A stretch of 64,000 nt of DNA from an uncultured Verrucomicrobiae bacterium (GCA_963764165.1 CAVXRD010000004.1:224001-288000), one strand, 5' to 3'. Positions 8,501 through 27,108 are shown, counted from the first letter of the stretch. Made by a program: numbers and translations. Notes: a model not told the origin generated them from the letters alone.

Positions 8501-8952
8501 CTCTCGCCGACCAGCAGCTTGCCAAGCATCGGCTCAATGTGGGGCACATAACCATCGGCCCAGCCCGCCGGATCGCGTTTCGGCATGGGAACGCGCTCGC
8601 TGATGAGGACGATCCCTGTTTTAACGGCAATCAGCCGCGAGTTAAGAAACAGGTTCGTGCCAGCCTTGACCGTCTCCAGCACAAGCAAACCGTTGGCGCC
8701 CAGCACCTGCCCCATTCTCAAGTAATCACGGTTGCCCGCGAACAACTCCTGTTCGTGATAAACTTTTTCTACCTCGGCCCGCTCGAGCAATTGAATGTTT
8801 TTTTCACGCGAGAGATCGGCGGTCAGCACATCGGCCACCGTCGCCGTGAAGTCGGAATCCGAAATCACCGCAATTTTGACAGCGTCGCTGGATTGCGCCG
8901 CTAATCGCAGCGCGCATATCCAAACCATCACGATTGGCAATGTGATCTTCAT
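5524..8952 (-). CDS. Large secreted protein with tandem CsgG/HfaB-like N-terminal domains (paralog A2)
   Basis: Signal peptide; LLERAEVEKVYHEQEL...LGANGLL; PISIVNLRSA...FVLERRRM...FWNGSYLVEG; N-terminus shared with three other ORFs in the window. Confidence 0.8.
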   Translation of the reverse strand: MKITLPIVMVWICALRLAAQSSDAVKIAVISDSDFTATVADVLTADLSREKNIQLLERAEVEKVYHEQELFAGNRDYLRMGQVLGANGLLVLETVKAGTNLFLNSRLIAVKTGIVLISERVPMPKRDPAGWADGYVPHIEPMLGKLLVGESEAVPISIVNLRSAFQNPDEIELERNLTLLLTDRLTQERNLFVLERRRMQSLAAEKDLNPIDDSSFWNGSYLVEGTIDRDGYSPDKATISLRLVPPNGGAPINIELSGERTNVSGLVLQLASHILARLNVKPGATAWKPLEEADQYENEARWALRWGLYEAAQSASESAWALGKRAPQTAVLRIRSYSESLGAINETSGNINVPAVPDAALLSPSIRTLDLYCAAMPLVVTNPTQMYNEWFDLGMKSLERTADLLDGFYTAFELRAGNEEKLAELRASLRRFVPVLDSQMPPIADYYGQIIENRPAPKGMRFDGPSRRDFERVKLVEWEQGGLWFEKPEDSESFFRQQLERGTVPESVPRIVGWTWEDRKRVPQVTRQFIAGLCQSTNEEIRLAGNYLSVLRAPNDGTSSLRDAEEKLIEGLWEQRTNFLNTSDKAPLLTKTEMAIAEKRGNYFHGPYHLEPWASFRQRMRLCYIAESTNWTTSLTYFLFPSDPANFTREEAEALLPALQGMKQRSSRNRYYPGVLNTVARAAGKSQLATNAPPQFDMARPGPQVAEPPLPVHFQRWNVDELKTVGASPRLLRIICRQDKVWGLLYMTADNGFGIPPSTPASFASVDLKTGQAETVMLPQALGSPSTAIGWKDGEQGYPTPCFDVSDDSLFVSLPGKLARYRFASKAWETMALPTEPCGGVTIWNGFVYFANADVLLEINPDTKAIQTLASSRRSPVNELDPVWNTDNQVMTDWGGRLGVETTKGLFVADAEKRHWDKIERPTNMFSTFPARFPAKGSLGILTVAPAPGISRSRMVEVSTKHALPELLLEQVDPANPNAGGKVFANEKPRWQWPDPFALEVASFALQDENLWSVQPRKFHFWMNPFQSYEPVIFKDDRNATLLRFAPGIPGPMTVPLRFEKAGQPFDPFVRSTPGSAPRGWSPFRPSVAEWLVTEQGVVVIGLDEEPGHWLVPGAEIEKRWNAFLKSARTENLAKPGTSPKR

Positions 8953-10773: not shown

Positions 10774-10894
10774 TTCTGACCTGTATGACGGTTCCCGGAG
10801 GCCGAACCTTTGAGAAATAGGGAAAAATGAATCTGGAACTCACGAAATCAGGAAAAGACCGGCCGCAGATGGCAAGTGCCGCCAAAAGAAAGAA

Positions 10895-10960
10895 CCACAG
10901 ATGGACGCAGACCAACACTGATAAAATCAAAAACCTGTGTTGATCTGTGTGAATCTGTGG
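10895..10960. repeat. Imperfect palindromic intergenic repeat
   Basis: CCACAGATGGACGCAGACCAACAC ... GTGTTGATCTGTGTGAATCTGTGG inverted arms with internal ~10-bp periodicity. Confidence 0.55.
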
Positions 10961-11202
10961 CATCCCCTTGTCCTCGCGCCTCTTGAGCCCTTGCGTCTAA
11001 AATCTCCCATTGCCCGAAAAGCGATTCGGGTGTGTTGATCAAAAACGGGCGAGGCGCAGATGAGATTTGGGTCGAATCACCTTGGGCGGAGGCGCGCGCG
11101 GCTCTGTTCGCATGGGCGCAACGGTGAAGAATCAGCCGCAGCCCCCCGCGATTAATCGGCCCGCTTTTCGGCTCAACGTGCTGCGGCTGGCCTGCAACGC
11201 AG

Positions 11203-11988
11203 TTAGGTGACCTGGTTGGGGTTTGATTTGGTGGACTTATGCCAGAGGCGGCGAAAGAAATTGCCGACCCGGGTTTGGTGTGCGCGGACCTTCTCTTCTT
11301 GTGCGCGGCGTTGTTCTTCCTGCGCACGGCGCTCCTCTTCCTGCGCCCGAGCCGCCTGATACGCGTGAAGCTGATGATTGATCAACAACCAGTCCACGCC
11401 GTAATTGTGGGCGAATTCGCGCATGGGCGCGGCGATGCGTTCCGGATAAAAAATGATGACGTCGTTCAAAACCAACAGGCGGTGGCCGGAACTCAGCGGG
11501 AGGAGCGCGCTTATGACTGAATGGAAATCCGGCCAGTCGGCGCACTCTTGCGGGCGCGGCGGGGCGGACAAATAAAGCCGCGCATCGTCAATAAGCACAA
11601 CGCTGTCTGAATACAGAGATTGCATCGCAGCCAGCTCTTGGAGAAGGGGACTTTGGTTGGTTTGGCCAGAAGCGTGTTCGGCTTGGCACCAGTGGGCGTC
11701 CAGCCAAAAGAAAACGGCTTGGCGGGAAAATTCTTCCTGGTGCTGCCGAAGGAACGAGGGCGAATCGCCCAGATGCAACTCAACGCCAGGCTGGTCTAGA
11801 AACCGTGCGCGCGCTTGGTTGAACAATTCCGGCGACATTTCAACTGAGCTGCATTTGGAAAAAAAACGAGAGGCAATCGCCAGCGAGTCGCCCTTGAATG
11901 TCCCCGTCTCAACAAACCGCTTAAGCGGCAGTTCCCGCGCCAGGAATTGCGCCAAATTTACGTCGAGAGAGAAAGAGATTGCGCCCAT
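11203..11988 (-). CDS. Class I SAM-dependent methyltransferase-like protein (glycan-cluster type)
   Basis: FVETGTFKGDS, FFWLDAH, VLIDDARL motifs; C-terminal (R)RAQEE heptad repeats. Confidence 0.75.
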   Translation of the reverse strand: MGAISFSLDVNLAQFLARELPLKRFVETGTFKGDSLAIASRFFSKCSSVEMSPELFNQARARFLDQPGVELHLGDSPSFLRQHQEEFSRQAVFFWLDAHWCQAEHASGQTNQSPLLQELAAMQSLYSDSVVLIDDARLYLSAPPRPQECADWPDFHSVISALLPLSSGHRLLVLNDVIIFYPERIAAPMREFAHNYGVDWLLINHQLHAYQAARAQEEERRAQEEQRRAQEEKVRAHQTRVGNFFRRLWHKSTKSNPNQVT

Positions 11989-11990
11989 AG

Positions 11991-12800
11991 TCAGGAAGCT
12001 TTGAAAATCCGCCCCAGTTTCTCCCGCAAACCGCCCGTCGTTTCTGGGGAACGCCGGGTCTCGGCAGCGGTGGGGCGAGGCAGGTTTGCGGTCACATTCA
12101 TGCTGAAAAGTTCTTGGGGAACAAAACAAGCGTCGTACCAGGCAAGCCAGCCGGTGGCAGTGTAATATTCGTTGAATTGCGCGCCGAGGAAATACTTCTC
12201 GTCTGCCAAAAACCGCGTGATTTCGAGGGGCGTAGCCTGTTTGACAAACCGGGGCGTGGCGAGCATTTCAACCACGATCCAAGGACGGCTGGTGCGCAGC
12301 GTCCTTGTCGCCCCCTGCAACACGCGCAGCTCGTTGCCTTGGGTGTCAACTTTGATCAAGCCGACGCGCTGGCTGAAATCCATCCCCGTCAGCAGTTCGT
12401 CCACGGTGGTTACGGCCACAGAATGCTCCTTGTGAGGGCCTGGCCGCTCATTTTGGTAGGCAAGCAACGAACCCGTGTATCGCTCCCCCTGGCAATAAAG
12501 TTTGGCGCTGCCAGCGTGATCCGAACAAGCCCTGGCTTCGATCCGGAAACGATTATCGGAGGCAAATCGCTCTCGCAGCTGGCTAAAACTTTCCGGATTC
12601 GGCTCAAGGAGAACGGCTTGGAGAAAGGGGCTATTCGGAGCCCCTGCAAAACGGAGGGCAAAGTCCCCTTGATAAGCGCCGATATCCAGCAAAAGCGGGC
12701 GCTCGCGGAAGAAGCAGTCATGATGAAAAATCTGGCTTTCCAGCCAGTCTTCCAACGACCCTCCAATATTCGGAAAGACGCAAGGAGAAGCAGCGTTCAC
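11991..12800 (-). CDS. FkbM family methyltransferase
   Basis: LLDIGAYQG, EPNPE, TTVDE, LIKVDTQGNELRVLQGA. Confidence 0.9.
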   Translation of the reverse strand: MNAASPCVFPNIGGSLEDWLESQIFHHDCFFRERPLLLDIGAYQGDFALRFAGAPNSPFLQAVLLEPNPESFSQLRERFASDNRFRIEARACSDHAGSAKLYCQGERYTGSLLAYQNERPGPHKEHSVAVTTVDELLTGMDFSQRVGLIKVDTQGNELRVLQGATRTLRTSRPWIVVEMLATPRFVKQATPLEITRFLADEKYFLGAQFNEYYTATGWLAWYDACFVPQELFSMNVTANLPRPTAAETRRSPETTGGLREKLGRIFKAS

Positions 12801-13657
12801 GATAAATAGCCCGCCTTCTTCATCATAACGCCAGCCTCGCGCAGAAACGCCTCCCGCACGACAGACGGCATTTCATCCTGGTGCGAGCCGGTCTGGCCGC
12901 GGCGGATAAACGATTTGTCTTTGGGGATTTGCGGATTTTCCCACGCAAAGGATGCCTCACGCATTTTCATGGCCCCGAAGGATGCGTTTTTCGCCGCATA
13001 TTCCAAGGCGGCGAGCTTGCAAGGCAAGCCCGCAAATTCACCAATGCGCAGCAATTGAGTCACGGGATCCTTTCTCAAGTCCTCATAACGGACCGTAATC
13101 ATTTGCGCGGAATGCGGATTGGCCAGCCATTGCGCAACGTGCTCATGCCATTTGCAGGGAAAGAGCTTGTCGCCCAGTTGAACCAGTTGAAGAAAATCAA
13201 GCTTCTCTCCGCATAGGGCTTCCAAATAGTGCCGGTAGGAGACCATTGCATCACGCCCATCCCGCAACAAATAGACAACCTTCCGATAACCTGGCTTCGG
13301 CAAACAGTGCGATTTGAAAAAAGTGACGGGGTAATAGCGCTTGTAGAATTTCTTAAAATGGACGTCCGGCGCCAAATCCTGGATCAGGGCGTCGGGTGCG
13401 ACTTGGAGATCAACGCCATAAAAAGCACCGGCCACCAAATATTGCATCCAAGTGTTCCCTGATTTGGGATAGCCGACGACGAAAACGTCGTCCTCTGCGA
13501 CTCGATCAATGGGTTGAAACCCCGTGGAGGAGCAGAATTCCGCGAAGCGGTCGGACAAACCCGCCGGGGGGGGCGGGGACGGAAGCGCTGGCGCCGACGA
13601 GGACGAGTCGCCCGCGAATACTCGCATTATCCGGCTAAAATGTTGTCTAGGTGTCAT
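12797..13657 (-). CDS. Sulfotransferase domain protein (start uncertain)
   Basis: 5'-PSB motif YPKSGNTW; KSH; LLRDGRDAMVSY; RYEDL; FIRRGQTG. Confidence 0.88.
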   Translation of the reverse strand: MTPRQHFSRIMRVFAGDSSSSAPALPSPPPPAGLSDRFAEFCSSTGFQPIDRVAEDDVFVVGYPKSGNTWMQYLVAGAFYGVDLQVAPDALIQDLAPDVHFKKFYKRYYPVTFFKSHCLPKPGYRKVVYLLRDGRDAMVSYRHYLEALCGEKLDFLQLVQLGDKLFPCKWHEHVAQWLANPHSAQMITVRYEDLRKDPVTQLLRIGEFAGLPCKLAALEYAAKNASFGAMKMREASFAWENPQIPKDKSFIRRGQTGSHQDEMPSVVREAFLREAGVMMKKAGYLS

Positions 13658-13793
13658 CAGTCGGGCAAACGATTCTGACTCGGTTCCTTGCAGGACGCAA
13701 GCCTGGCTCTGCCTTGTGAGGCAGAACACTACACTCAACGACGAAGTGTTTAAAGCGTTTTCAATGGCATTTTTAAGTCTTTTAAAAAAATTC

Positions 13794-14494
13794 GGTGTTA
13801 GTCCTCACTTTTGTTTTTGTTTTTCGCAGAAGGTTCGATACATGGCTCCAACTGCCCATGTGCAGATTCCGAGCTATCCATGCCAGCGTCATCGTCGTCT
13901 CGGCCCGCAACCGGCGGGCCAGCGCGACTTTGTCCTTGTCGCCCTTCCGGCGTTCTGTCAACTGCCGCTCGTCCCACTTCAGGCGCTTGAGTTCCTCCAC
14001 CACCAGGCGGCGGGCCCGCTCCTCGCCGCTCTCGGCGCGGTCGCTCCCGTAATGGTTCGCACCCGCCCGCCCCCCGGCTTCCGCCAGCAACTCCCGCCGG
14101 AATTCCTCGCTCCCCAGACACCAGCCGCGCCGAATCTGCTCTTGCTGCTCTTGGGTTTGCTCCGGTTGAACCGCTTGGTGTAAACCCCCAGCAGCCATTT
14201 CATGCCCGCCACCAAATTGGCCTCCGGTGTTTCAAAAACCAGGTGGAAGTGGTTGCGCATTAAACAATAAGCATGCACCTGCCAGAGAGTCTTTTGGCAG
14301 GCCTCGGCCAGAGTCGAGAGAAAAAGGCGCCGGTCCTCGTCGTCGCGAAAGATGTCTTCGCGGCGGTCCCCGCGATTCATGACGTGATAGACCGCCCCGT
14401 GATATTCCAGGCGCAATTGGCGCGGCATGGGCCCACCCTCTCACACCCAGCATTCACGGTCAAAACCATAGTGCAAATAGTGAGGACTGACACC
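13794..14494 (-). mobile_element. Y1/HUH (RAYT-like) transposase element copy 1, internally deleted (~310 bp shorter than the other copies)
   Basis: MPRQLRLEYHGAVYHVMNRGDRREDIF...LMRNHFHL. After KRFN the sequence jumps to the C-terminal part. TIRs GGTGTTAGTCCTCACT (13794) and GTGCAAATAGTGAGGACTGACACC (14471-14494). Confidence 0.9.
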
Positions 14495-14613
14495 GGCTCA
14501 ATGATTTAAGGGTCAATTCATTGGATTGTCAATAAACGGACGTGAGAAAAAATGCATTTATCAGGCCAAGGCCCTGACTCAACGAGGCTATGGAATTCCA
14601 ATTGTATCCTCGC

Positions 14614-14733
14614 GTTGAAATAGCTGGTGGTTGTCTGAGGCGCCCCGCCAACGCTTCCCGGATTTGGCGTTGTCACGGACACCACCATGTCCGCATTGTT
14701 GAAGGTGTATGTCGTGCTCCCGTTGCGGGCGTC
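14614..14733 (-). pseudogene. RHS/YD-repeat core remnant
   Basis: DARNGSTTYTFNNADMVVSVTTPNPGSVGGAPQTTTSYFN resembles YD-repeat core; no start or continuation. Confidence 0.6.
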
Positions 14734-14829
14734 CCCCGCCGCGCCTTCGCCCCAACTAATGTGTGACGCCCCTGCTTTAATGCTTGCGCATTTATTGTGA
14801 TGGCACCGCACTTGCAAAGGTTGGCTCGT

Positions 14830-15240
14830 TCAGTTCACGTCCTTGCTGCGGAAAAGAAATCCAATTATCGCAACTTGAGCCGTAACATATGCGCCTAACA
14901 AAAGGTTTGACAGCACGAACTCAGACCTAAACGTCCGAATCAGGTATTCTGAATCTTCCCGATACACATTGCACGCTACACCAATATAATTTCCCACCAG
15001 CAGTAAAATAATTAAATACTTTATCCAGCGTTTCTTCACCCAAGGCAGTCCGATCCCGATTACCGGCCAAACAAGGAATCCAAATGGCTCGGGGGAGGCA
15101 ACCAAGGCCCAAAATAATGAGCTGCCGTGACCAGCTCCGAACATAGCGATTCCCATCCAACCAAATCCCAAAGAAAATAGCGCGCCCGCGCCGCCCAATG
15201 CAATCGACAAAAAGACTTGTTTCTGTATCGGTTTTACCAC
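14830..15240 (-). CDS. Small multi-TM protein, putative toxin immunity protein
   Basis: AT-richer; about four hydrophobic segments; GTG start 4 bp after the stop of the upstream gene tail. Confidence 0.6.
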   Translation of the reverse strand: MVKPIQKQVFLSIALGGAGALFSLGFGWMGIAMFGAGHGSSLFWALVASPEPFGFLVWPVIGIGLPWVKKRWIKYLIILLLVGNYIGVACNVYREDSEYLIRTFRSEFVLSNLLLGAYVTAQVAIIGFLFRSKDVN

Positions 15241-15244
15241 AATT

Positions 15245-15560
15245 CTAGTAGGAATACGTTGGTGTCTCGCCAAAGCGCTGTTGAATGATCGATTGAATAT
15301 TCTGAATTCGTAATTTAAGATCTCCGGTTTGATTAAAAGCTCTGACTAGGTCACTCTTAACGGTACCTATTTGAAGGGGAGCGCAACAAGGGGAATCAGA
15401 AATTAGGTTGTAAATCGTTTGAGCCGCATCCCAAGCTTTGGGGACATCAGTATAGGGATAGTCCGGAGCATGCCCGCCGAGCTCCGCATCGGCGTGACCG
15501 AGGTATCCTGAGTCTCGTCCACGCCAGGAACCAGTGCGATAGTTTATCGGTTTGCTATTT
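15245..15560 (-). pseudogene. 5'-truncated gene tail (~100 codons), putative polymorphic toxin C-terminus
   Basis: Open frame starts at the transposon TIR with no start codon of its own (...SKPINYRTGSWRGRDSGYLGHAD...TPTYSY*). Confidence 0.5.
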
Positions 15561-15562
15561 TC

Positions 15563-16617
15563 GGTGTCAGTCCTCACTTTTTGCACTTTTTGTTTTTGTG
15601 TTTCGCAGAAGGTTCGATACATGGCTCCAACTGCCCATGTGCAGATTCCGAGCTATCCATGCCAGCGTCATCGTCGTCTCGGCCCGCAACCGGCGGGCCA
15701 GCGCGATTTTGTCCTTGTCGCCCTTCCGGCGTTCTGTCAACTGCCGCTCGTCCCACTTCAGGCGCTTGAGTTCCTCCGCCACCAGGCGCCGGGCCCGCTC
15801 CTCGCCGCTCTCGGCGCGGTCGCTCCCGTAATGGTTCGCCCCCGCCCGCCCCCCGGCTTCCGCCAGCAACTCCCGCCGGAATTCTTCGCTCCCCAAACAC
15901 CATCCGCGCCGAATCTGCTCATGCTGGTCTTGGGTTTGCTCTTCCTGCCGGCGCAGCTCCATTTGCCGCCCGAATTCCCGCCGCCCGGCCGCGCTGTCCT
16001 TGGGAATGCCTTTCTCCCCCAACAGCCGGTCCACCCGCAGCCAGGCCGGACGCTCCTTGGGCGGTTTGAGATATTCCCCGAAGCTGCTCCAGAGAAAGCT
16101 TTCCAGAGGCGCTTCCGGAGACAGCACCCTGGCCCGCACGGGATTAAGATGCACATAATCGCAAACGGTGCGCAAATAGCCGTGGCCGCTGCCATCGACG
16201 ATGAGCGCCTTGTAGCGCCCCGCAAAGAGGTGCCCGCACCACTTGTGCCGGATGTTGAACCGCTTGGTGTAAACCCCCAGCAGCCATTTCCTGCCCGCAA
16301 CCAAATTGGATTCCGGTGTTTCAAAGATCACGTGGAAGTAGTTGCGCATTAAACAATAAGCATGCACCTGCCAGAAAGTCCTCTGGCAGGCCTCGGCCAG
16401 GGTGGAGAGAAAAAGCCGCCGGTCTTCATCATCGCGAAAGATGTCTTCGCGGCGGTCCCCGCGATTCATGACGTGATAGACCGCCCCGCGATATTCCAGG
16501 CGCAATTGGCGCGGCATGCTGCCAACCCTCTCACACCGAGCATTCACGGTCAAAACCAAAGCGCAAATAGTGAGGACACCGGCGATGACACCGGCGATGA
16601 CACCGGCGAATGACACC
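15563..16617 (-). mobile_element. Y1/HUH transposase element copy 2 (full length)
   Basis: Left TIR GGTGTCAGTCCTCACTTTTTGCAC (15563-15586); right end GCGCAAATAGTGAGGACACC followed by iterated TGACACC units. Confidence 0.9.
15567..16517 (-). CDS. REP-associated/IS200-like tyrosine (Y1) transposase with C-terminal HTH extension
   Basis: YHVMNRGDRREDIF, AYCLMRNYFHV, GHLFAGRYKA, DYVHLNPVRA, WSS; stop TGA lies inside the TIR. Confidence 0.92.
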   Translation of the reverse strand: MPRQLRLEYRGAVYHVMNRGDRREDIFRDDEDRRLFLSTLAEACQRTFWQVHAYCLMRNYFHVIFETPESNLVAGRKWLLGVYTKRFNIRHKWCGHLFAGRYKALIVDGSGHGYLRTVCDYVHLNPVRARVLSPEAPLESFLWSSFGEYLKPPKERPAWLRVDRLLGEKGIPKDSAAGRREFGRQMELRRQEEQTQDQHEQIRRGWCLGSEEFRRELLAEAGGRAGANHYGSDRAESGEERARRLVAEELKRLKWDERQLTERRKGDKDKIALARRLRAETTMTLAWIARNLHMGSWSHVSNLLRNTKTKSAKSED

Positions 16618-16623
16618 TGCGAA
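16575..16623. repeat. Four tandem 11-13 bp units of the element end motif
   Basis: GACACCGGCGA TGACACCGGCGA TGACACCGGCGAA TGACACCTGCGAA. Confidence 0.85.
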
Positions 16624-16641
16624 CGGATTCTTTTTCGACGA

Positions 16642-17370
16642 TTATCTGCTTCGATTTGTAACTGTCCCAGCGCTGTTGGTGTCTTCGCTGATATTCTGCA
16701 TCTTCTTCCAAGCCTCGACCATCTTTTCCCAATTACGACGATCGTGCTTTTTTTTCGCGTCCATTCCTGTCCAGAAATAGCGATAAAAATCGGTTCCCAT
16801 GTCTAACGTCGGCGGCAGGCATTCAACTCGGCCAGCGTGAAACTCCTTCAACTGACTTTCAATTCGATTAAACAAGTTTGTTGTCTCCGAACCGATAGGC
16901 GAATGATACTCTTCGCGCAAGACAAAGTTGAAGTGCGGAGACAGTCCATACGAGTTGCCAGTGGTTTCGGACTCTGTCGGAGTTACAACGATTCTCGTTC
17001 CGCCAAGGTCGGCTGCCTCAGCTCGAATTTCGAAACCTTCATCGTAAGCAACCCACTTTGTTCCTTGTTTAAGAAGTCTGAGAGGCATTGGGCCAATGCC
17101 GAGATTCCAAACATTCGTTTGGGGCACCGCTACTCTGGTTTGACCTGACACCACATAATTATAAGGGAACTCCGAAAGGCGTTTCCCGTGGTACGTGCCG
17201 CTTTCGAAGGACTTTTTGATCGCCACTACAACGTTCGGTAGGCTGTCTGTCACTATTAATGAACTGGCCCTGAATTCACTTTCGCTAGCGTTGCACTCTG
17301 AGAATTCTACTCCAAATATGATAGAGATAGTCAAAAAGAAGCAGCCCGCCTTGAGCACCCTAGTTATCAT
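16642..17370 (-). CDS. AT-richer exported hypothetical protein, putative immunity protein
   Basis: GGAGGTGG RBS before ATG (MITRVLKAGCFFLTISIIFG); start overlaps the end of a truncated upstream tail. Confidence 0.65.
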   Translation of the reverse strand: MITRVLKAGCFFLTISIIFGVEFSECNASESEFRASSLIVTDSLPNVVVAIKKSFESGTYHGKRLSEFPYNYVVSGQTRVAVPQTNVWNLGIGPMPLRLLKQGTKWVAYDEGFEIRAEAADLGGTRIVVTPTESETTGNSYGLSPHFNFVLREEYHSPIGSETTNLFNRIESQLKEFHAGRVECLPPTLDMGTDFYRYFWTGMDAKKKHDRRNWEKMVEAWKKMQNISEDTNSAGTVTNRSR

Positions 17371-17463
17371 AGCCACCTCCATGCCTTTTGTCCACTCCGT
17401 AGGTAAAGAAATCAGCAGGGAATGGATCGCCGCCACAAGCCATGCACTTAAAATATTGTTTTC

Positions 17464-18480
17464 GGTGTCAGTCCTCACTTTTTGCACTTTTTCTTTTTTG
17501 TTTTTCGCAGAAGGTTCGATACATGGCTCCAACTGCCCATGTGCAGATTCCGAGCTATCCATGCCAGCGTCATCGTCGTTTCGGCCCGCAACCGGCGGGC
17601 CAGCGCGATTTTGTCCTTGTCGCCCTTCCGGCGTTCTGTCAACTGCCGCTCGTCCCACTTCAGGCGCTTGAGTTCCTCCGCCACCAAGCGGCGGGCCCGC
17701 TCCTCGCCGCTCCCGGCGCGGTCGCTCCCGTAATGGTTTGCCCCCGCCCGCCCCCCGGCTTCCACCAGCAACTCCCGCCGGAATTCTTCGCTCCCCAAAC
17801 ACCAGCCGCGCCGAATCTGCTCATGCTGGTCTTGGGTTTGCTCCTGCCGGCGCAGCTCCATCTGCCGCCCGAATTCCCGCCGCCCAGCCGCGCTGTCCTT
17901 GGGAATGCCTTTCTCCCCCAACAGCCGGTCCACCCGCAGCCAGGCCGGACGCTCCTTTGGCGGTTTGAGATATTCCCCGAAGCTGCTCCAGAGAAAGCTG
18001 TCCAGCGGCGCTTCTGGAGACAGCAGCCTGGCCCGCACGGGATTCAGATGCACGTAATCGCAAACGGTGCGCAAATAGCCGTGGCCGCTGCCATCGACGA
18101 TGAGCGCCTCGCAGCGACCCGGAAAGAGGTGCCTGCACCACTTGTGCCGGATGTTGAACCGCTTGGTGTAACGCCCAGCAGCCATTCATGCCCGGAACCA
18201 AATTGGATTCCGGTGTTTCAAAGATCAAGTGGAAGTGGTTGCGCATTAAACAATAAGCATGCACCTGCCAGAGAGTCTTTTGGCAGGCCTCGGCCAGAGT
18301 CGAGAGAAAAAGGCGCCGGTCCTCGTCGTCGCGAAAGATGTCTTCGCGGCGGTCCCCGCGATTCATGACGTGATAGACCGCCCCGCGATATTCCAGGCGC
18401 AATTGGCGCGGCATGCCGCCACCCTCTCACACCCAGCATTCACGGTCAAAACCAAAGTGCAAATAGTGACGACTGACACT
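17464..18480 (-). mobile_element. Y1/HUH transposase element copy 3; CDS frameshifted near 18170-18187
   Basis: TIRs at 17464-17487 and 18457-18480; intact NHFHL and YVHLNPV; two single-base deletions relative to copy 2. Confidence 0.9.
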
Positions 18481-18571
18481 TGCGCTCCGATACCGCCAGT
18501 TGGCCCAAGCTCTGCGTCCAGCTTGATTTCCGTCGTAAGCTGCGCGTGCATAGTCGGCTCGCACAGCTCAC

Positions 18572-19576
18572 TTATCGTTCAATCACACAAATCATTGAAT
18601 TATCAATACACATCAGCGGAAGTCCATCGTAAACATCCGTCCTAACTACTCTTTTCACATGATTGTCAGATTCACAGTAACTCACCATAATGCGGCCTGA
18701 AACTATAAAAAGCTCACCCCCACTCTCATAAACATCGCCGACCAAAAGCTGTTTGGCGTCATTATTTACCATACGCTCACCGCGGAAATCGCACCTCCGT
18801 GTCACTTGCCCAGTGTTCGGGATCAAGCCGAATAGAATCCCGTCTCCGAATACAAAAATCTCTGCAGCTCCCACCGCGTAAGAAAATGTCAGTCCTCTGC
18901 TCTTTAAACCCGTGCTTGCGGGATTTGTTGGAATATCACCGGGCAAAACGAACTCCCAGCTACGCGACTCAGATCCAGCTTTCTGACCGTACAAATGATC
19001 CACGACGTTACCACCTTCCTTAACACGCTGCTCGTAGACTAACACATCCTTCCAGCAGGATAGGCTAAATGTTCGTGTTGGCAGCGTCGTTTCCCATTTT
19101 TGACTCAGCCGATCATCGACGAAGTTTATAGTATGAGTTCCAAACCAGTCGCGTAGTAGTGGAACGCCCACAGAATGCCAACCGTTTGATAATCGAATAT
19201 CCCGTTTCCCGCCAGATTCCTGATCGCGCTCCTTTACAAGCTCACGCGGGCCGAAGGTTCCTGTGTATCCACTTAGTTGTCGTAAATCGAACGCCTTGGT
19301 CTTCTTCCCAGTAACCGCGTCATAGAACACTGTCATATGCCCAACATTGTCTCTTGTTGCGGCACCATTAATTTCTACCGCGAAGATCAGCGCATAACAG
19401 TTTCCAAATAACACGGCGCACTCCGGAATACAATCCTTCGGCAAGGAATTTTTCCAAACATTCTTCCCGGTCGCCGCGTCGAATTTAACAACCGCGAGCC
19501 GCCTTGGCGGCAATAAACTATCTCCGCATGCGTCACAAGCTACACACGCAAAAAGAATATACATAAGTTTATTCAT
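18572..19576 (-). CDS. AT-richer exported protein with PQQ-like beta-propeller features, putative immunity/cargo gene
   Basis: Signal-like MNKLMYILFACVAC; FDAATGKNVWK, YDAVTGKK and LIPNTGQV blade-like motifs. Confidence 0.65.
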   Translation of the reverse strand: MNKLMYILFACVACDACGDSLLPPRRLAVVKFDAATGKNVWKNSLPKDCIPECAVLFGNCYALIFAVEINGAATRDNVGHMTVFYDAVTGKKTKAFDLRQLSGYTGTFGPRELVKERDQESGGKRDIRLSNGWHSVGVPLLRDWFGTHTINFVDDRLSQKWETTLPTRTFSLSCWKDVLVYEQRVKEGGNVVDHLYGQKAGSESRSWEFVLPGDIPTNPASTGLKSRGLTFSYAVGAAEIFVFGDGILFGLIPNTGQVTRRCDFRGERMVNNDAKQLLVGDVYESGGELFIVSGRIMVSYCESDNHVKRVVRTDVYDGLPLMCIDNSMICVIER

Positions 19577-19649
19577 AATACGCAATTATTGCTACCATAT
19601 AGACGGGTCAGACCAGCATAATCACATAAATTGACTTTTGTCATTTGGT

Positions 19650-22600
19650 TCACTTTATTACGCCCGCTGCCGGCCCGCTTCCAGTTTGATTTTTGCTTGC
19701 GGCGGCCAATGCGGTTTCAAGCTGCGGAATCGGCATGAGCCAGATTCCGGTCTTTATGACGTTGGCGCTGGGGGCAAACACGGAGTTGCGGCCATTCAGG
19801 AGGTACATCGGGGATTCCGGTCCGATCACAAGTAAGTCTTTGGAAAAACCCATCCAAATCGGATTCCCTCCAGCAGTCACTACGGGGCGGCCCTCAGGCG
19901 AATCAAATTTCAGGAACACTGACCTTGGCTGTTTGGACTCGCCGGAATAACAGAGGATTTCGGAGTGGCAACCGTCTTTCGTTTCCACATGTCTGATGTA
20001 GGTTTTCAGTCGTGGATCATAGACTTGGTTGAACTGGCAATGGTCCCGCATCACAAATAGATCGCCGTTGCGCACGGTTCGGGCGGCGTTGGCAAACGTT
20101 TCCCCCGGCAACGTCCATTTTGCTTCGGGCCCGCTCGGTGGGGGTGTCGGTTTTGCCGCCGGTCCCCCCATCATGTGGCCGATAACGGGCCTTCTTATGG
20201 CGCGCACATCTTGCTGGCCGAGCAGATCCGCTTCCTTCGACTCTGTCGCAAGGCGATAAAGGCTCTTCGGATGGTCATTGCGCAGGCCTACAAAGAGAAC
20301 CCCATCCGGAAAAATTAACGGCGGAGTCTGTCCTGACAGATCGGCAATCTCAGGATGGAAATCTGATCCCGTCCCATTGAATATCTTCCCTTCGGTGGCA
20401 ATCCGCAGGGAGTGTTCAGGGCCCGCAAATACCACCGGCTCTCTAAAATCTTCCGTGTCGAGCGGCGAAGCTGGCGGCTGCCTGCGCTTGCTGGCCAGCA
20501 GTTTCGTCTGTTTGCCGTCATCGGTGATCTCGAAGATGGTATTTTCGTCCGCGGCGCAAAGCTGCCCGTTGGCGGCGAACAACTCGTAATTGTTGCCGTC
20601 CGAAATCGGATATGGCGTCCATTGCTTCGTGTCAATGTCGTAGCTCGCGATTTTGCCGTCGTCGCAATGAATCAATTTTCCGCGCCACAACGTCGTGCGA
20701 TGGTAAAAATGGTTGCGAGAAAACAACTGTTCCCATCGCAGCGGAGCCACCAGCCAACTCTTTGTGGCTAGGTCGAAGACCGCTACTGCGGGGAATTCCT
20801 CAGCCACTGGTTTCATCTTCTTGGAGTTTGTATCGAACCGGTTGAAGTTGGCCTGATACTCGAAATCCAACAGGAGTTTGTCCTCGACCCAATTATGCGC
20901 GGTAATGGTCGCGCTGGTAACTTTATCTCCGTAAAGCCCGGCGTATGGGATCGAAAAAAACGCATCGATGGTTTGTATATTGGTCACCGGGTTGTCGCTT
21001 GCTGAGGCCGACGCTCGCCGACCATCCCCCGCCCCTGTTCCCACAGCGCGTGGGGCGAGCGGCGTACGCGCCAGCGGCGGGGCGGCGGATGCCTGGGCAT
21101 TTTCGTCCATGTCAATAATCTTCTTAATCCTATCCTCTATTTGCCCCACCACCATGACGCCATTTCTCGCCCATTTTTGATTTTGTTTGATCTGCTCCTG
21201 CAAGTTGGTTTGGTAGGCGGCAAGCAACGGCTGGAGTTCAAGGGCCTGGGCTTTGGTGATGTCTCCTATCGTATCGAGAAACAAATGGAAGAACGTTGGG
21301 GGATCGAACGGCGTGTTGTTGGTCAGGAATTTTTTCTGCTGCGCAAATCGTTCGAGGCCCTTGGGGCCGGTGCGGCGGTCTGCGCGTTTCGAGCCTTCAA
21401 CAGTGTCGCGCCAATACTGCTGATGCATCAAGTCCAGTTCCTGGTAATATTTGTGGAAATATAGGTCCTGCAGCCCACCTTCAGCCAGGGCGCCCGCATG
21501 CCATCCCATGTAGCAAATATCCGCGCGATTGGTGATCAGCGCCTCGCGATTGGCCAGCAGCTTGTCAAAGAAATTCGTAACGGCGGCGGCCCGCTTCTGG
21601 CTGGCCGGCGCGTCGGCCACCGCAAAGGCATCTGCTTCCAATTGCAATTTAATGTCGGGCGAATTTTTCAATTCCCCCACAAATTCGTTCCACAACACCG
21701 GGATTCGCTGACGGTCCGCGAACTTCCACGCAATGAGCCGGGGCCGCTCCGGCGGGCGCTTCCAGAGGTTCGCATGCAGATAACAAAACACGGGGCTCGT
21801 CATCAAATTGCGGTAGCGCGCAATCGTTTCATCCGGCGTTTCGCTCCAATAACAACCCCAATCCACCTCGCACCGGAATATGTTCGGCGTCTCATCCAAT
21901 CCGTGGAGTTCGTCCGAAGTCACTAGGCGGTCTCCCACAAAATAGCTGTCATGCACGGTGGGCGCTTTGGAAATGAGGTCCGCGACCGAACGGGCCAGAG
22001 CTCGCAGCTCGACGAGTTGATCCGCGACGGATTCCTGCGCGTCGGGATGGTGATGGAAATGTTGAAGAACTGCGGAAGAGGCGGTCAGCACATCGATGCC
22101 GGCCCTGTACCAATCCAGATCCGGCTGGCCATTCCTGGCAACCTGCACGCCGACTTTCGGCACGCCTTCGGGTGAGCTTTTGGCGAACTGTTCGTAGCAT
22201 TGCAGCGCGTAAATCGCTGGAGCGCATTCGTTCGCCGGCGGCCGTGTATCCAGGTGGACTTCCGGGATGATTTTCCAGTTCATCCCGTGAAGGACACCCG
22301 CCGGAACGACTTTTGGAATGGCTGCCAGGCAGGCATTCATCCGCACCATGGCGGCTTCCAGGTCATGTTTTCCAAGCGCCCAGGCAGCCTCCGAAGCCAT
22401 TTGCGCCTCGCCTTTGACATCCCAGCGAAGCGCCCAATTGGCTTCCGCCAAATACTGCTTTGCCTCGTCCGCCGCGTTCCAGGATTTGACACTTGGCGAC
22501 ACTTTCAGCGCGTCGGCGACCTTGAGCGCCATCTGATTGACAACGTCGGCGAGATTGGTTCGGGCGCCGCTGACTTCGAATGGCACCGGAGCGCCGCCAT

Positions 22601-23375
22601 TGGGTGGGGTCAAGCGCGCGCTCAGCGTGATGGTGTCCTTCGAATACCCCTTTTCATCCAAAACCCCTTCCAATAAATAACTGCCGTTCCAAAAAGCCGA
22701 GTGGTCTGACTTCAGATCCTTTTCCTCCGTCAGCAATTCCATGCGCTGGCGTTCCAGCACGAAAAACTGGCGCTCCTTGGTCAATCGTTGGATGGCCAGC
22801 GCTTTGACTTCGCGTTCCGAGGCGCGGCCTTCGTCGGACTGGACGGCGGAACGGAGATTCACGATGGAAATGGGAATCGCGTCCTTTTCCAAGACTCCCA
22901 GCTTCGGCAGCAGGACATCCAGGCGCGGCGCAAATTGAGAGGGCCACTCACTTAATTCCGAATCGTCGATTGAAAAGGATTCCGCAAGCAGAACCGCGCC
23001 CGGCTTTACGGCAACCAGCCGGGCCGTGAGCATTGTAGTGGCTTTCGGAGGAACGGGGCCGAAGCCTCTCGACATCGAAACGGTCGCGCTCAAAAGCACG
23101 AGCCCGTCCGCTCCCAAGAGACGCCCCATTTTAATAGTGTCACCCATCCCGGCGGAGAGGCCTTGCTCGCGGTAGACCTTCAGAATCTGGTCGCGCTCGA
23201 GCAGTTGGACTTTGTCATTGGCGGACAACTGCGCCGTCAGCAAATCCGCCAGGTTCGCCGCCGCGGGCGTTTCCGCGATCACCGCAACGCGCAAAGGCGC
23301 GGCTGGCTGCGCGAACAGCGCCGGCGCCAAAAGGAAGAGCACTGCAAGGAATGAAACGAATCTTAAAGTTTTCAT
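19650..23375 (-). CDS. Large secreted protein with tandem CsgG-like N-terminus (paralog B2)
   Basis: LLERDQILKVYREQGL...LGADGL; PISIVNLRSAVQ; FWNGSYLLEG; WALRW...AWALG. Confidence 0.82.
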   Translation of the reverse strand: MKTLRFVSFLAVLFLLAPALFAQPAAPLRVAVIAETPAAANLADLLTAQLSANDKVQLLERDQILKVYREQGLSAGMGDTIKMGRLLGADGLVLLSATVSMSRGFGPVPPKATTMLTARLVAVKPGAVLLAESFSIDDSELSEWPSQFAPRLDVLLPKLGVLEKDAIPISIVNLRSAVQSDEGRASEREVKALAIQRLTKERQFFVLERQRMELLTEEKDLKSDHSAFWNGSYLLEGVLDEKGYSKDTITLSARLTPPNGGAPVPFEVSGARTNLADVVNQMALKVADALKVSPSVKSWNAADEAKQYLAEANWALRWDVKGEAQMASEAAWALGKHDLEAAMVRMNACLAAIPKVVPAGVLHGMNWKIIPEVHLDTRPPANECAPAIYALQCYEQFAKSSPEGVPKVGVQVARNGQPDLDWYRAGIDVLTASSAVLQHFHHHPDAQESVADQLVELRALARSVADLISKAPTVHDSYFVGDRLVTSDELHGLDETPNIFRCEVDWGCYWSETPDETIARYRNLMTSPVFCYLHANLWKRPPERPRLIAWKFADRQRIPVLWNEFVGELKNSPDIKLQLEADAFAVADAPASQKRAAAVTNFFDKLLANREALITNRADICYMGWHAGALAEGGLQDLYFHKYYQELDLMHQQYWRDTVEGSKRADRRTGPKGLERFAQQKKFLTNNTPFDPPTFFHLFLDTIGDITKAQALELQPLLAAYQTNLQEQIKQNQKWARNGVMVVGQIEDRIKKIIDMDENAQASAAPPLARTPLAPRAVGTGAGDGRRASASASDNPVTNIQTIDAFFSIPYAGLYGDKVTSATITAHNWVEDKLLLDFEYQANFNRFDTNSKKMKPVAEEFPAVAVFDLATKSWLVAPLRWEQLFSRNHFYHRTTLWRGKLIHCDDGKIASYDIDTKQWTPYPISDGNNYELFAANGQLCAADENTIFEITDDGKQTKLLASKRRQPPASPLDTEDFREPVVFAGPEHSLRIATEGKIFNGTGSDFHPEIADLSGQTPPLIFPDGVLFVGLRNDHPKSLYRLATESKEADLLGQQDVRAIRRPVIGHMMGGPAAKPTPPPSGPEAKWTLPGETFANAARTVRNGDLFVMRDHCQFNQVYDPRLKTYIRHVETKDGCHSEILCYSGESKQPRSVFLKFDSPEGRPVVTAGGNPIWMGFSKDLLVIGPESPMYLLNGRNSVFAPSANVIKTGIWLMPIPQLETALAAASKNQTGSGPAAGVIK

Positions 23376-23381
23376 GCACTG

Positions 23382-26300
23382 TCAATCGTTCGCCTGCTGT
23401 GACGGCTTTTCTCGCGAGACCGCCTTTTGCAGCTGAGAAATCGGCATAAGCCAAATCCCGAGTTGCTGGCTGCCAGATTCGGAACTCAAATACCCCGCGC
23501 TCCAGACGCTTGAATACTCCTGACCCATTACCAAATAATCCCCCGCAAAAACCATCCACGCCGGCGAATGCGGGCGGAACGGGTCGCCGTAGTTGAGCGC
23601 CACCGGGGGGATGCCATCCAAGCCAAATTTCAAATACACTTTCCGTGCAGTCGGAGCGTCACTGGCGAAGCAAAACAATTCCGTGTGACAGCCATTCTTG
23701 GCGACAACGAGGTTGCGAGGCCGCTGGCCGTTGCTTTGTTTGATTTCACAGTGGTCAGTCATGAGATAGAGATCGTCCTGATGAGAAGCCAGCGCCGCGC
23801 ATCCCAATGTAATTCCTGAGGGCAATTTCCACTTTGGCAAGGGTTCAGGCGCAGCTTCTTTTTTGGGGCGAGGGCCAATGATCATGCCGCTCATTTGTGT
23901 TTTCTGCTGGAGCAAGAGTTCAACCGGGCCTCCGTCGTTCGGCACACGGAACAGGCGGGACGGGTTCTGGCCCCAGGTCGTTATAAAATAGGCGGCGTCC
24001 GAAGTTATTTCCGGCGCGGTCTCGAATGCAGCCAAATCCAGTTCCTTACTCCAGTCGGCGCCCGTCCACGAGAATATCCGATTCCCCGTAATGACACGGA
24101 GGGACTCGTTCGGCCCCGGCATGAGCGTTGATTTTGCAAGATCCTCGGAATCCAGCAGCGTGACGGCGGGATGCCGCCGCGCGCTCGCCATGAGTTTGGT
24201 TCGCCTTCCATTCTCGGTAATTTCAAAAATTGCGCTTCCATTGGCCGCATAAAGATGCGCGCCGAGGCAAAATAATTCGTAATCGTTGCCATCGGAAATT
24301 TCAAATTCGCGCCAGCGCTTGTCCTTGGCGTCATACTGTAGAATCTTGCCGCTCCCGCTATGAATGATCTGGCCGTTCCAAATGGTGGTGCGATGATAAT
24401 ACGGAGTCGAAGTAATCGGATCGATCCGCGGCAGAACAGCCACGTCCCAACGCTTGACGCCCGGATCGTAACTGGCAACGAAGGGAACCCGCGCATTCGC
24501 AGCCTTAATGACATAGCCGTTCGTATCATAGGTGCTGGCGTCGACGACGCACTCGAGATCCAGCACCATTTTTCCGCTAATCCAATGGTGAGCGGTGATG
24601 ACAGGCCGGTAGGAGGAATTTTCAAAGGCCGCGTTCAGAGGAATGGGAACGAATGAATTTACGGATTCCACGTTGGTAATGGTTTCGGGCTCTACCTCAA
24701 CAGGCATCGCTTTCTGCGGAGCGGCCGCGATGTTCTTTGGACCGGCTGGCGGAGACTGTATTTTTGGCTGCGCTGGCGGTTGATCCCTTATTGCAATCGT
24801 ATTGAGGAACTGCTTTAGGTGTTTCTCCGCGATTCCGACATTGGCGATCGCCATATGATTAGCTCCCTGGGCTTCCAGGTTTGACTTGTATGAAGCCATC
24901 AAGGTTAGAAGTTCCTCAATCTGAGCTTTTGAAAAATCAAAATAGCCTCCCAGAAACAGTTTGCTAAAAGTCCGGAATTCGAAGGGAGTATTTGCGGATA
25001 GATAATTCCTCTGCTCGTCGAATTTGCTGAGATGGCTGGGGCTCTTGGTTGTTTCCATCCGCTGAGCGGCCGGAACCGTCGCGCTGCGGAATTCCGCGGA
25101 CATCGAATCCACCGTCGAGCAGAATCGCTTAAAGTTGCTTTCGAGGAGCGCTCGCTCAGGCGTGACAACGTGGTCGTCCGGAACAATCCCTTCTGCGTGC
25201 CATTGCAAATAAAAAATATCGACCGTGTTCGTTACCAGCGCGTGCCGGTTTGCCTCAAACACGTCAACTAAATTGCTTATGGCCGCCGCCGATTTCTGAT
25301 AGCCATCTGAATCTGCCACATTGAAGGCGGCGGCTTCGAGATTCCAATACACGTTTTTCGAGTTTTTCAGCTCCTCCACAAAAGCGCTCCACAAGACCGG
25401 AATGCGCGCGCGGTCTTCGGCGTTCCAAGCCACCAATCTCGGCCGGCCCGGCGGCCGCGCCAGCAAGCCTTGATGCACGTAACAAAAAACCGGCGAGTCC
25501 ATCAATTTGCGATAAAGCGCAAGAGTGTCATCCGGCTTCTCGAACCAAAAACAGCCCCAGTCCGTTTCGCAGCGGAAAATCGTCGGTTGCGCATCCATCG
25601 TGCTGGCCAGCTCGTCGTAGATCGCGAGGCGATCCCCGACGAAATAGCTATCATGGACAGACGGAGCATTGGCGATCAAGCCGGCCACGGTCCGCGCCAC
25701 CGCGCGTAATTCCGCCAATTCGTCCTGAACTGGAATTTGGGATTTTGGATAAAAGCTATAGTGTTGAAGCACCCTGGAAGCCGCCGTGAGCGCATCAATT
25801 CCGATTTTGTACCAATCCGAATCATGCCAATCATTCCAGCCCTTTCCCCGCCACAGCACTTTGGGTTCGCCTTCCGGTGAATTCTTGGTGAATTGCTCAT
25901 AACATTTCAGCGCGTAAAGCGCGGCGCGGATGTCCTTCGGATCCGGGCGTTTCAAGTAGTGAGTCTCGACCGTCATTTTCCCCTTCGCGTAGTTGTAGGA
26001 CACTTCCGGACTGTCTTCCGGCACGGCGATCACATAGGACTTAACTCGGGCCAAGGCGCCTTCGAGGTCGCGTTTGCCCAGCGCCCACGCCGCTTCCGCC
26101 GCCATCTGCGCCTCACGGCAGACCTGCCAGCGCATGGCCCAATTTGCCTCGTCCAAGTATTGTTTGGCTTCGTCGGAGGCACTCCATGATTTGACAGTCG
26201 ATTGAACTTCTAACGTCTTCACCAGCTTCAGGGCCATTCCGTTGATGATCTCAGATAGGTTTGTGCGAGGGCCGCTCAGTTCAAACGAAACCGCGGCTCC

Positions 26301-27071
26301 GCCCCGGGGAGGAATGATTCGCGCGTGGAGCGTGATAGCATCTTTGGAATAACCGTTTTCATCCAGAACACCCTCCAGCAAATAACTGCCGTTCCAAAAC
26401 TCCGTTTTGTCCGAACTTAAATCCTTTTCCTCGCCCAGCAATTCCATGCTTTGCCGTTCGAGAACGAACACTCTCTGCTCCTGGCTTAATCGCTGCATGG
26501 CGAGCGCTTTTACCTGGCGCTCCGTTTCCCGGCCCTCGTCGGTCTGGACGGCGGAGCGGAGATTCACGATGGAAATCGGGACGGCGTCCTTCTCCAGCAC
26601 CGCCAATTTCGGCAGAAACGCGTTCAATCGCGGAGCAAATTGGGATGCCCAATCCACCATCTCGGATGGCGCGAGCGGAAATGAATCGGAGGCCAGCAGA
26701 ACGCCGGGTTTCACCGCGATCAATCGCGCCGTCACGATGAAGGGCCGTGTCAGCGTATTGGTGTCCTTTGGCACAACAGTATTGCTGACGGCATTTAACA
26801 GCAAAAGACCGTCCGCTCCCAGGATGCGGCCCATTTTCACTGCATCGTTCATCCCAGCCGACAAGGCTTGCTCGTGGACGACCTTTTGAATTTGGTCGCG
26901 CTCGAGCAATTGAACCTTGTCATTGGACGACAACTGCGCCGTCATCAGATCGGCGAACTTCGCCGCTGATTCCGCCTCTGCAATGACAGCCATTCGAACC
27001 GGAGGGGCTGATTGCGCGGCCACCTGCGATGACGCAACGAGAAGAGCAATGAGCAATAACGCGATTTTCAC
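23382..27071 (-). CDS. Large secreted protein with tandem CsgG-like N-terminus (paralog B1)
   Basis: Same N-terminal motifs; shares HDSYFVGDRL, FRCExDWGC and ITAHxW with the 19650 ORF; probable GTG start. Confidence 0.82.
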   Translation of the reverse strand: MKIALLLIALLVASSQVAAQSAPPVRMAVIAEAESAAKFADLMTAQLSSNDKVQLLERDQIQKVVHEQALSAGMNDAVKMGRILGADGLLLLNAVSNTVVPKDTNTLTRPFIVTARLIAVKPGVLLASDSFPLAPSEMVDWASQFAPRLNAFLPKLAVLEKDAVPISIVNLRSAVQTDEGRETERQVKALAMQRLSQEQRVFVLERQSMELLGEEKDLSSDKTEFWNGSYLLEGVLDENGYSKDAITLHARIIPPRGGAAVSFELSGPRTNLSEIINGMALKLVKTLEVQSTVKSWSASDEAKQYLDEANWAMRWQVCREAQMAAEAAWALGKRDLEGALARVKSYVIAVPEDSPEVSYNYAKGKMTVETHYLKRPDPKDIRAALYALKCYEQFTKNSPEGEPKVLWRGKGWNDWHDSDWYKIGIDALTAASRVLQHYSFYPKSQIPVQDELAELRAVARTVAGLIANAPSVHDSYFVGDRLAIYDELASTMDAQPTIFRCETDWGCFWFEKPDDTLALYRKLMDSPVFCYVHQGLLARPPGRPRLVAWNAEDRARIPVLWSAFVEELKNSKNVYWNLEAAAFNVADSDGYQKSAAAISNLVDVFEANRHALVTNTVDIFYLQWHAEGIVPDDHVVTPERALLESNFKRFCSTVDSMSAEFRSATVPAAQRMETTKSPSHLSKFDEQRNYLSANTPFEFRTFSKLFLGGYFDFSKAQIEELLTLMASYKSNLEAQGANHMAIANVGIAEKHLKQFLNTIAIRDQPPAQPKIQSPPAGPKNIAAAPQKAMPVEVEPETITNVESVNSFVPIPLNAAFENSSYRPVITAHHWISGKMVLDLECVVDASTYDTNGYVIKAANARVPFVASYDPGVKRWDVAVLPRIDPITSTPYYHRTTIWNGQIIHSGSGKILQYDAKDKRWREFEISDGNDYELFCLGAHLYAANGSAIFEITENGRRTKLMASARRHPAVTLLDSEDLAKSTLMPGPNESLRVITGNRIFSWTGADWSKELDLAAFETAPEITSDAAYFITTWGQNPSRLFRVPNDGGPVELLLQQKTQMSGMIIGPRPKKEAAPEPLPKWKLPSGITLGCAALASHQDDLYLMTDHCEIKQSNGQRPRNLVVAKNGCHTELFCFASDAPTARKVYLKFGLDGIPPVALNYGDPFRPHSPAWMVFAGDYLVMGQEYSSVWSAGYLSSESGSQQLGIWLMPISQLQKAVSREKPSQQAND

Positions 27072-27108
27072 AATTTGCCGGATAATGCTATATGAATATC
27101 TGCATATT

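Follow-up and report, generated by a model that had tools for sequence, protein, structure and literature searches.

Long Y1 transposases of the HUH type, enclosed by terminal inverted repeats (TIRs), have been described as TIRYT or TIRtron elements (PMC3733652), as TnpA-Y1 subclass 2.1 (PMC6006769) and as RAYT group 1 (PMC5581495); subclass 2.1 transposases occur in 14.9% of strains (PMC6006769) and, as RAYT group 1, form the most insertion sequence (IS)-like of the RAYT groups (Bertels 2017, PMC5581495). Three co-oriented copies of such an element alternate with three AT-richer inserts at positions 13794-19649 of a 64-kb stretch of DNA from an uncultured Verrucomicrobiae bacterium (G000:C4:224001-288000, G000 being the host genome), which is analyzed here and is referred to throughout as the window. 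The explanation that we favor, at slightly better than even, is that TIRYT ends captured foreign pieces of 1-3 kb and that the array grew by repeated joining; it is likely that this capture is not specific for immunity genes. The element itself is already known; the activity is undescribed in the TIRYT and subclass 2.1 literature covered.

The tips of most relatives examined here fit the TIRYT consensus GGGGWSAS, and TIRs are found solo, paired and clustered in the genome likewise; the window's tips (GGTGTCAG) are a variant. The accessible part of the TIRYT literature describes neither cargo capture nor toxin or immunity neighbors, tip repeats or biochemistry. The nearest precedent comes from prochlorosin loci (Laurenceau, bioRxiv 2020.03.09.984088), where a TnpA-REP of the same subclass, 2.1, is present in full and truncated copies amid a variable gene array. 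A diversifying role was proposed in the prochlorosin study; later, no strong evidence for or against causation was reported (bioRxiv 2020.03.09.984088). The prochlorosin system differs from the present one in that no inverted repeats were found, the genes face the transposase at a fixed distance, and there is a single cargo family. E. coli TnpA-REP and its REP-BIME system (PMC3333891) are alike in HUH chemistry, in cleavage at C^T (also far from the binding site), in strand transfer, in tandem amplification and in a proposed sequestering of flanking genes; they differ in that GTAG-footed hairpins are bound instead of TIRs, and in that the products are non-coding repeats and not gene cargo of 1-3 kb.

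The translocatable units and pseudo-compound transposons of IS26 also consist of direct element repeats alternating with cargo that runs from one element end to the next, and adjacent-deletion circles re-entering beside a resident copy would yield the layout seen here (PMC9602291). The present array differs in its Y1 enzyme; moreover, no direct target duplication is evident, by eye, in the 38 two-ended TIRYT loci. IS26 uses DDE chemistry and generates 8-bp target duplications. The rAID arrays of Bacteroidales (PMC12247911) and polyimmunity loci (PMC3482391) share with the array co-oriented, short, low-GC genes of toxin-immunity derivation with conserved motifs between them. As far as the accessible text of these two papers goes, rAID arrays have one tyrosine recombinase upstream, whereas here HUH elements or their ends lie between the cargo; polyimmunity loci are without intervening toxin cassettes, whereas here toxin stumps persist and the cargo extends beyond immunity. 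The biogenesis of rAID arrays is there called unresolved (PMC12247911). Among the open reading frames (ORFs) scanned in and around the present array the only such match is Y1_Tnp, with no tyrosine recombinase upstream of the immunity array; at 8-26 kb no integrase ORF was seen in ORF scans (no attC model was run). A literature search, with most subscription papers and supplements outside its coverage, turned up no account of toxin-immunity or defense cargo bracketed by TIRYT ends.

Element copies, tips and joints

The alternation of three same-orientation copies of one Y1 element with three inserts, as given in the original prediction, is borne out by coordinates (Table 1), by the identity of the copies (93-97% pairwise over the columns in common), by the encoded Y1_Tnp domain (PF01797, E 3e-9) and by base composition: the G+C content of the inserts is 48.8, 47.3 and 48.0%, that of the whole window 56.9% and that of the elements ~61%. 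Inverted repeats of ~26 nt and 96% identity bound each copy, and the copies look mosaic. All three local transposase genes are damaged. Copy 2 has a Tyr at the first HUH histidine, a position occupied by His in 69 of 69 related loci (68 distinct). A tblastn search of the host assembly found no intact transposase homologue elsewhere (further Y1_Tnp matches were not checked singly), which leads to the prediction that the array is by now a relic.

The element fits both TIRYT (Di Nocera 2013, PMC3733652) and TnpA-Y1 subclass 2.1 (Quentin 2018, PMC6006769). Close transposase homologues are found in 63 of the 151 genomes of the order searched, the host included. Homologues of window sequences carry Verrucomicrobiota labels, and the host presumably belongs there. 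All 63 aligned family members match PF01797, and across the alignment H62 and Y121 are invariant and H60 is nearly so; Y121 is presumably the catalytic Tyr of the family. Inverted repeats flank most of 30 related loci, and both tips were located in 38. Most relatives carry TIRs of the GGGGTCAG type, which fit the consensus GGGG[AT][CG]A[CG], against which are to be set the window's tips of family A (GGTGTCAG) and family B (GGGTCAG). For the C-terminal helix-turn-helix extension to be expected in this subclass (of the Bac_DnaA_C, HTH_23 or HTH_28 kind), none of the 63 members has a Pfam match at E 0.1. The alignment-based model of the transposase (predicted local distance difference test score, pLDDT, 86) has a helical C-terminal domain, residues 236-315; the single-sequence model is poor. 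A match to NF047646 lies below its cut-off (39 vs 80 bits), Rfam gave no match, and no relative was found among solved structures searched by sequence.

The joints of the inserts coincide with TIR tips. The end motifs proposed as capture sites, TGAC(A/C)C, are present at 15563, 17464 and 19605, and the joints do lie at element ends; the motif is, however, the TIR tip, with the actual joint up to ~11 nt further outward, and at 19605 it is part of a solo right-end remnant from a second TIR family. The position of the cut is known only approximately, since the ends have sequence in common for 9-11 nt outward of GAC (11 nt in copies 2 and 3, ~10 nt in ends of the same-genus genome G657). A purely target-derived origin of TGAC(A/C)C is not supported, given this outward sequence common to the copies and to the G657 ends, and because the motif, read in frame, would put a stop in toxin 2; one joint, in L001, does lie directly ahead of a native GACACC. 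All host tips carry C/T-T-GAC, and weak promoter-like matches at two tips are directed into cargo.

Tandem repeats run across the tip at 6 of 50 host tips, at 11 of 98 tips of relatives and at 5 of 17 tips in the genomes G657 and G576, compared with 15 of 2712 controls; eight of the first 17 of these repeats start one base before GAC. Two further joints are recorded as observations in their own right. At L001:2844 (G000:C1, ~154,843) an Rhs fragment, a mosaic of the host's own Rhs paralogues, starts exactly at a native GACACC and is joined to the inner side of a family-B TIR (TIR-B); at L208:1500-1580 (G137:C3) only ~35 nt separate a pair of facing tips, which resemble a circle junction or a minimal cargo.

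Toxin stumps and the genes behind them

Each insert opens, as the original prediction had it, with a start-less tail that abuts or overlaps the following gene (tails of 105, 33 and 9 codons), and sequence comparison identifies tails 1 and 2 as C-terminal stumps of Rhs toxins. The match of tail 1 in genome G005 is a frame of 1576 codons with an Rhs core and DUF6765; the tail ends 4 nt ahead of the GTG at 15240. Tail 2 runs over the start codon of cargo 2 (ATG at 17370); its match, at 79% identity, is the end of an ORF that in metagenome contig L064 lies immediately ahead of a cargo-2 homologue. That toxin ORF has 27 protein matches (an Rhs core match is present in 9 of the 17 scanned, one of these below cut-off), and as a query against 300 genomes of the phylum it matched only the host genome. 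The toxin domains of both tail families have a His/Asp motif of the kind seen in zinc-dependent phospholipase C-like folds, and may have such a fold. Tail 3 has an ATGA overlap with the gene at 19576; it was rejected as a toxin tail, 9 codons being too short to exceed chance.

Cargo 2 is a good candidate for an immunity protein, a role predicted because members of its family lie downstream of the tail-2 toxin family elsewhere, namely in L064 and in locus L227 of G657. In G657 the toxin family appears as a 101-amino acid (aa) stump, with the cargo-2 homologue, behind a TIR mini-element and with a different breakpoint; in genome G601 a cargo-2 homologue lies between TIR mini-elements of 105-125 bp and is followed by a cut Rhs remnant. 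Three cargo-2 homologues (P0003, P0005 and P0006) end in a tail that is presumably the read-through of an integron attC-like site. One locus of this family, L067, lies within an ABC-transporter operon and is bordered by another kind of inverted repeat; several capture systems seem to carry the cargo-2 gene family.

Cargo 1 is predicted to be an immunity candidate from its position. Word-index homologue searches with cargo 1 and with cargo 3 returned only the queries themselves, and the ESM Atlas placed cargo 1 in unnamed clusters and cargo 3 in PQQ-like clusters, in both cases below the recognition threshold; a cargo-1 homologue does stand within a tip-cargo-tip-cargo run in G576. The RHS-core remnant said to end insert 1 is a weak match (E 0.025), and a tblastn search found nothing like it among the fetched loci beyond its own; yet the adjoining repeat has four matches in the host's own Rhs locus, the best at E 7e-6. 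The proposed layout of a toxin C terminus followed by its immunity gene is supported in part, by the Rhs C termini of tails 1 and 2 and by the toxin linkage of cargo 2; no toxin link was found for insert 3 or for the eight homologues of cargo 1.

Tips and cargo beyond the array

The host genome holds 49 TIR tips of families A and B (an earlier set of 50 counts one tip twice). Over the 700 nt outward of the tip, G+C content is below 0.52 at 33 of the 49; in the set of 50 the count is 34 outward versus 4 inward. As controls, two other families of intergenic repeats gave 8/149 and 4/23, and random windows gave 158/2000; the two families are palindromic and abundant throughout G000 (149 and 23 matches; e.g., L031:1543-1760). 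Solo host tips have lower G+C content outward than inward in 32 of 42 cases (p 3e-5), as do 14 of 20 solo tips in five other genomes (p 0.04), although genomes of one order are not independent and these p values overstate. The sequence outside the solo tips is foreign in composition and that inside host-like. Stretches of 0.77-2.7 kb lie between facing tips in nine cases, of which six are outside the window, and among neighbors at 5 kb or less facing tips outnumber back-to-back tips 9 to 3 (small numbers).

The 110 ORFs scanned next to host tips include an Rhs-HINT-AHH module, DUF4062, NOV_C, Schlafen AlbA_2 and PIN; Imm22, Imm26, PIN-like and Rhs neighbors were met in 12 hand-picked loci, which serve as examples and not as rates. 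The orientation of cargo relative to the tips is mixed (by eye). In the five other genomes Rhs is present at 2 of 30 loci (30 of 49 matches fetched). Rhs pieces adjoin 5 of 14 tips in G657, at three loci, one of which is how that genome was found. G601 has a different TIRYT family whose mini-elements alternate with low-GC genes, including AbiGi; at L033:5300-6970 and on C50, C46 and C34 of that genome, mini-elements of 105-125 bp take turns with small low-GC genes, as in a cassette array but with no transposase in place (28 matches in the genome). Other tip loci are of interest in themselves. Facing family-A tips at L026:5225-7919 (G000:C5, 53,220-55,922) bracket a pair of genes of 44% G+C, DUF4062 and SIR2-like (the latter by eye), possibly a defense system. 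L009 and L024 (G000:C2, 138.6 kb; C4, 165-167 kb) both combine a remnant of a second TIRYT family, a TIR-B and the same 255-aa gene, a repetition suggestive of a duplicated tip-plus-cargo unit; at L035:2480-3085 a start-less reverse transcriptase fragment (RVT_1) starts at a left tip.

The setting of the array is that of an interrupted operon. The genes on both sides of 10.8-19.6 kb are directly adjacent in G118, a genome of the same genus, from which it follows that the DNA between them, comprising the array together with three modification-enzyme genes, was inserted into the operon. The enzyme genes (11203-13738), two of them methyltransferase-like (one FkbM) and one a sulfotransferase, lie within the insertion and are missing from G118; TIR ends at its left boundary were looked for only through general end scans. 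The operon comprises four large paralogues with a CsgG-like N terminus (5524-8952, 19650-23375, 23382-27122 and ~27.5-31.5 kb), where G118 has a single copy at the corresponding place. The closest Rhs core on the contig of the array is ~500 kb off.

Table 1. Features of the array and its surroundings in window positions (coordinates of the element copies are approximate; aa, amino acids)
Feature	Position	Strand	Basis
Whole insertion: two methyltransferase-like genes, sulfotransferase and array	10800..19649	.	Flanking genes adjacent in G118
TIRYT element copy 1; transposase with ~310-nt internal deletion, catalytic Tyr region gone	13794..14495	-	Inverted repeats, copy alignment
Solo TIR-like end of a third type; tip faces copy 1 left end across 15 nt	14510..14532	-	Scan; likeness to relatives' TIRs by eye
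Weak YD/Rhs-repeat-like remnant	14590..14745	-	RHS_repeat E 0.025, below cut-off
Repeat after cargo 1 (post-immunity), also in host Rhs locus G000:C2:768.9-775.7 kb	14790..14840	-	Four matches
Cargo 1: hydrophobic protein of 136 aa; immunity role predicted from position only	14830..15240	-	Position
Tail 1: start-less; last ~100 aa of an Rhs DUF6765 toxin domain	15245..15559	-	51% identity over 99 aa, Rhs protein end, G005
TIRYT element copy 2; transposase frame open over 316 aa (16517-15567), NYFH replacing HUH motif	15562..16587	-	Alignment, Y1_Tnp
Tandem 12-13-nt junction repeats at copy 2 left tip	16574..16617	+	Tip-repeat scan
Cargo 2: 242-aa protein, signal-like N terminus; predicted cognate immunity protein of tail-2 toxin	16642..17370	-	Homologues, toxin linkage
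Tail 2: last 33 codons of Rhs toxin domain, overlapping cargo-2 start	17360..17461	-	Sequence matches
TIRYT element copy 3; transposase frameshifted	17463..18480	-	Two 1-nt deletions
Cargo 3: protein of 334 aa with signal-like N terminus, PQQ-like and of beta-propeller type; no toxin link found	18572..19576	-	Profile, cluster matches
Solo right-end remnant of second TIR family (TIR-B); tip faces cargo 3; weak promoter-like match inside	19602..19645	-	End scans, promoter scan

How the array may have arisen

What has to be accounted for is the element anatomy, the toxin origin of tails 1 and 2, the joints at the tips, the outward-foreign polarity, the tip repeats and the mosaic look of the copies. 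Capture by TIRYT ends would do so as follows. The transposase would nick single-stranded DNA at or near the tip, where the conserved CTGAC would provide a C^T such as E. coli TnpA-REP cleaves; the tip would be joined to a loosely chosen site 1-3 kb off or in incoming DNA; one end landing in a toxin gene would leave a start-less stump. Joining of a tip to a distant site would free an element-plus-cargo circle or a tip-cargo-tip piece, and strand transfer or homologous recombination with a copy already in place could then insert such circles and pieces there, to generate element-cargo-element repeats in which selection likely retains the intact antidote and defense genes. The notion that two TIRs pair on one strand to give the hairpin needed by an HUH enzyme is speculation. 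That the tips are reusable single-strand sites in an HUH-driven, integron-like system, taking up toxin-immunity and defense genes of foreign origin, cutting off the toxin and building cassette arrays both dispersed and tandem, is advanced more tentatively than capture itself and is less likely than not.

The original prediction had named one Rhs locus hit three times by an insertion element as its own undoing. The inserts are not of that simple form: they do not continue at their ends into the next tail, and removal of the elements does not restore the toxin genes. Three hits on a single locus without deletion were accordingly rejected, the insert ends being without the missing upstream toxin parts (compare L064, L227 and L072). 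A version with deletion is harder to dismiss. An imported Rhs orphan array, arriving in one piece, could have been compacted into a polyimmunity locus by TIRYT insertions and adjacent deletions in place, which would have taken out cores and toxin halves and spared the immunity genes, with no need for capture from several donors. Insert 1 does read as an unbroken orphan segment, from toxin end through gene and post-immunity repeat to weak Rhs remnant, and the remnant behind cargo 2 in G601 is cut at a tip. Such compaction seems rather unlikely, given an insert 3 with neither toxin nor Rhs link, joints marked by three TIR types, the six other facing pairs in the host with different cargo (DUF4062 and the SIR2-like gene, by eye, among them) and tip-side Rhs modules in G657 that are spread over three loci among host genes.

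That TIRYT is an ordinary insertion element amassing in AT-richer neutral or foreign DNA, with recombination and decay but no capture at the ends, would suit its place in the most IS-like RAYT group (PMC5581495) and the single intergenic copies in which intact relatives mostly occur; it is nonetheless quite improbable, for symmetric insertion into islands does not predict solo tips that are foreign outward and host-like inward, tip repeats are ~20-fold over control, and facing tips prevail over back-to-back ones, if in small numbers. At the other extreme would be a dedicated, domesticated, rAID-like acquired-immunity array, specific for toxin-tail/immunity pairs. Two of the three inserts are a toxin stump with a downstream gene, all are co-oriented, and the promoter-like matches at two tips aim into cargo; with every local transposase damaged, cargo that is varied elsewhere and of mixed orientation to the tips (by eye), and no fixed integration site, this is highly improbable. 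The specificity for immunity genes on which it depends, and which the original prediction had assumed, is not supported by the cargo found elsewhere (DUF4062, NOV_C, Schlafen AlbA_2, AbiGi and PIN-like).

Several findings weigh against capture by TIRYT ends as well. Most intact relatives are single and have ordinary genes on either side (128 ORFs in the flanks). These flanks show no deficit of G+C (68 flanks, p 0.12), the content being lower by at least 0.05 in 7 of 69 and higher in 3. The expected enrichment of toxins or Rhs beside intact elements did not materialize: Rhs is in the flanks of 3 of 68 distinct loci compared with 1 of 30 IS110 loci (Fisher p 1, with shorter IS110 flanks), which also suits the passive accumulation of an ordinary element. 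Of the eight cargo-1 homologues in the 300 genomes, none follows a toxin gene and none has Rhs at a distance of 1.5 kb or less; the gene behind the G005 DUF6765 toxin gives no alignment with cargo 1, and three clear cargo-3 homologues are without a toxin-like ORF upstream. In G601 outward and inward G+C contents are 0.591 and 0.596 (39 matches, a comparison confounded by short mini-elements and loose matches), and only 9 of 14 tips in G657 are lower outward (a count without a significance test). At the C4 locus of G657 (L227) the element stands, downstream of a longer Rhs gene, in place of the stretch from an Rhs remnant to mid-toxin, its left tip cutting the remnant and its right tip the toxin; deletion in place is an equally good explanation there, and the locus counts in favor of compaction. 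No donor locus is close enough to fix the cut site, and the relatives offer no base-level empty site.

The array bears on how a single-stranded DNA HUH enzyme uses inverted repeats and on how orphan-immunity arrays assemble. With its tip repeats, its polarity of foreign DNA outward of tips and the toxin-stump cassettes that recur elsewhere, it supplies for assays a substrate that is defined, a C^T as candidate site of cleavage and a product. If capture by TIRYT ends is true, it would add an HUH route of cassette capture to those of the integron and of the rAID tyrosine recombinases; the more tentative reading, of tips as reusable single-strand sites, would in addition give Y1 subclass 2.1 its first function and explain one way in which orphan-immunity loci arise.

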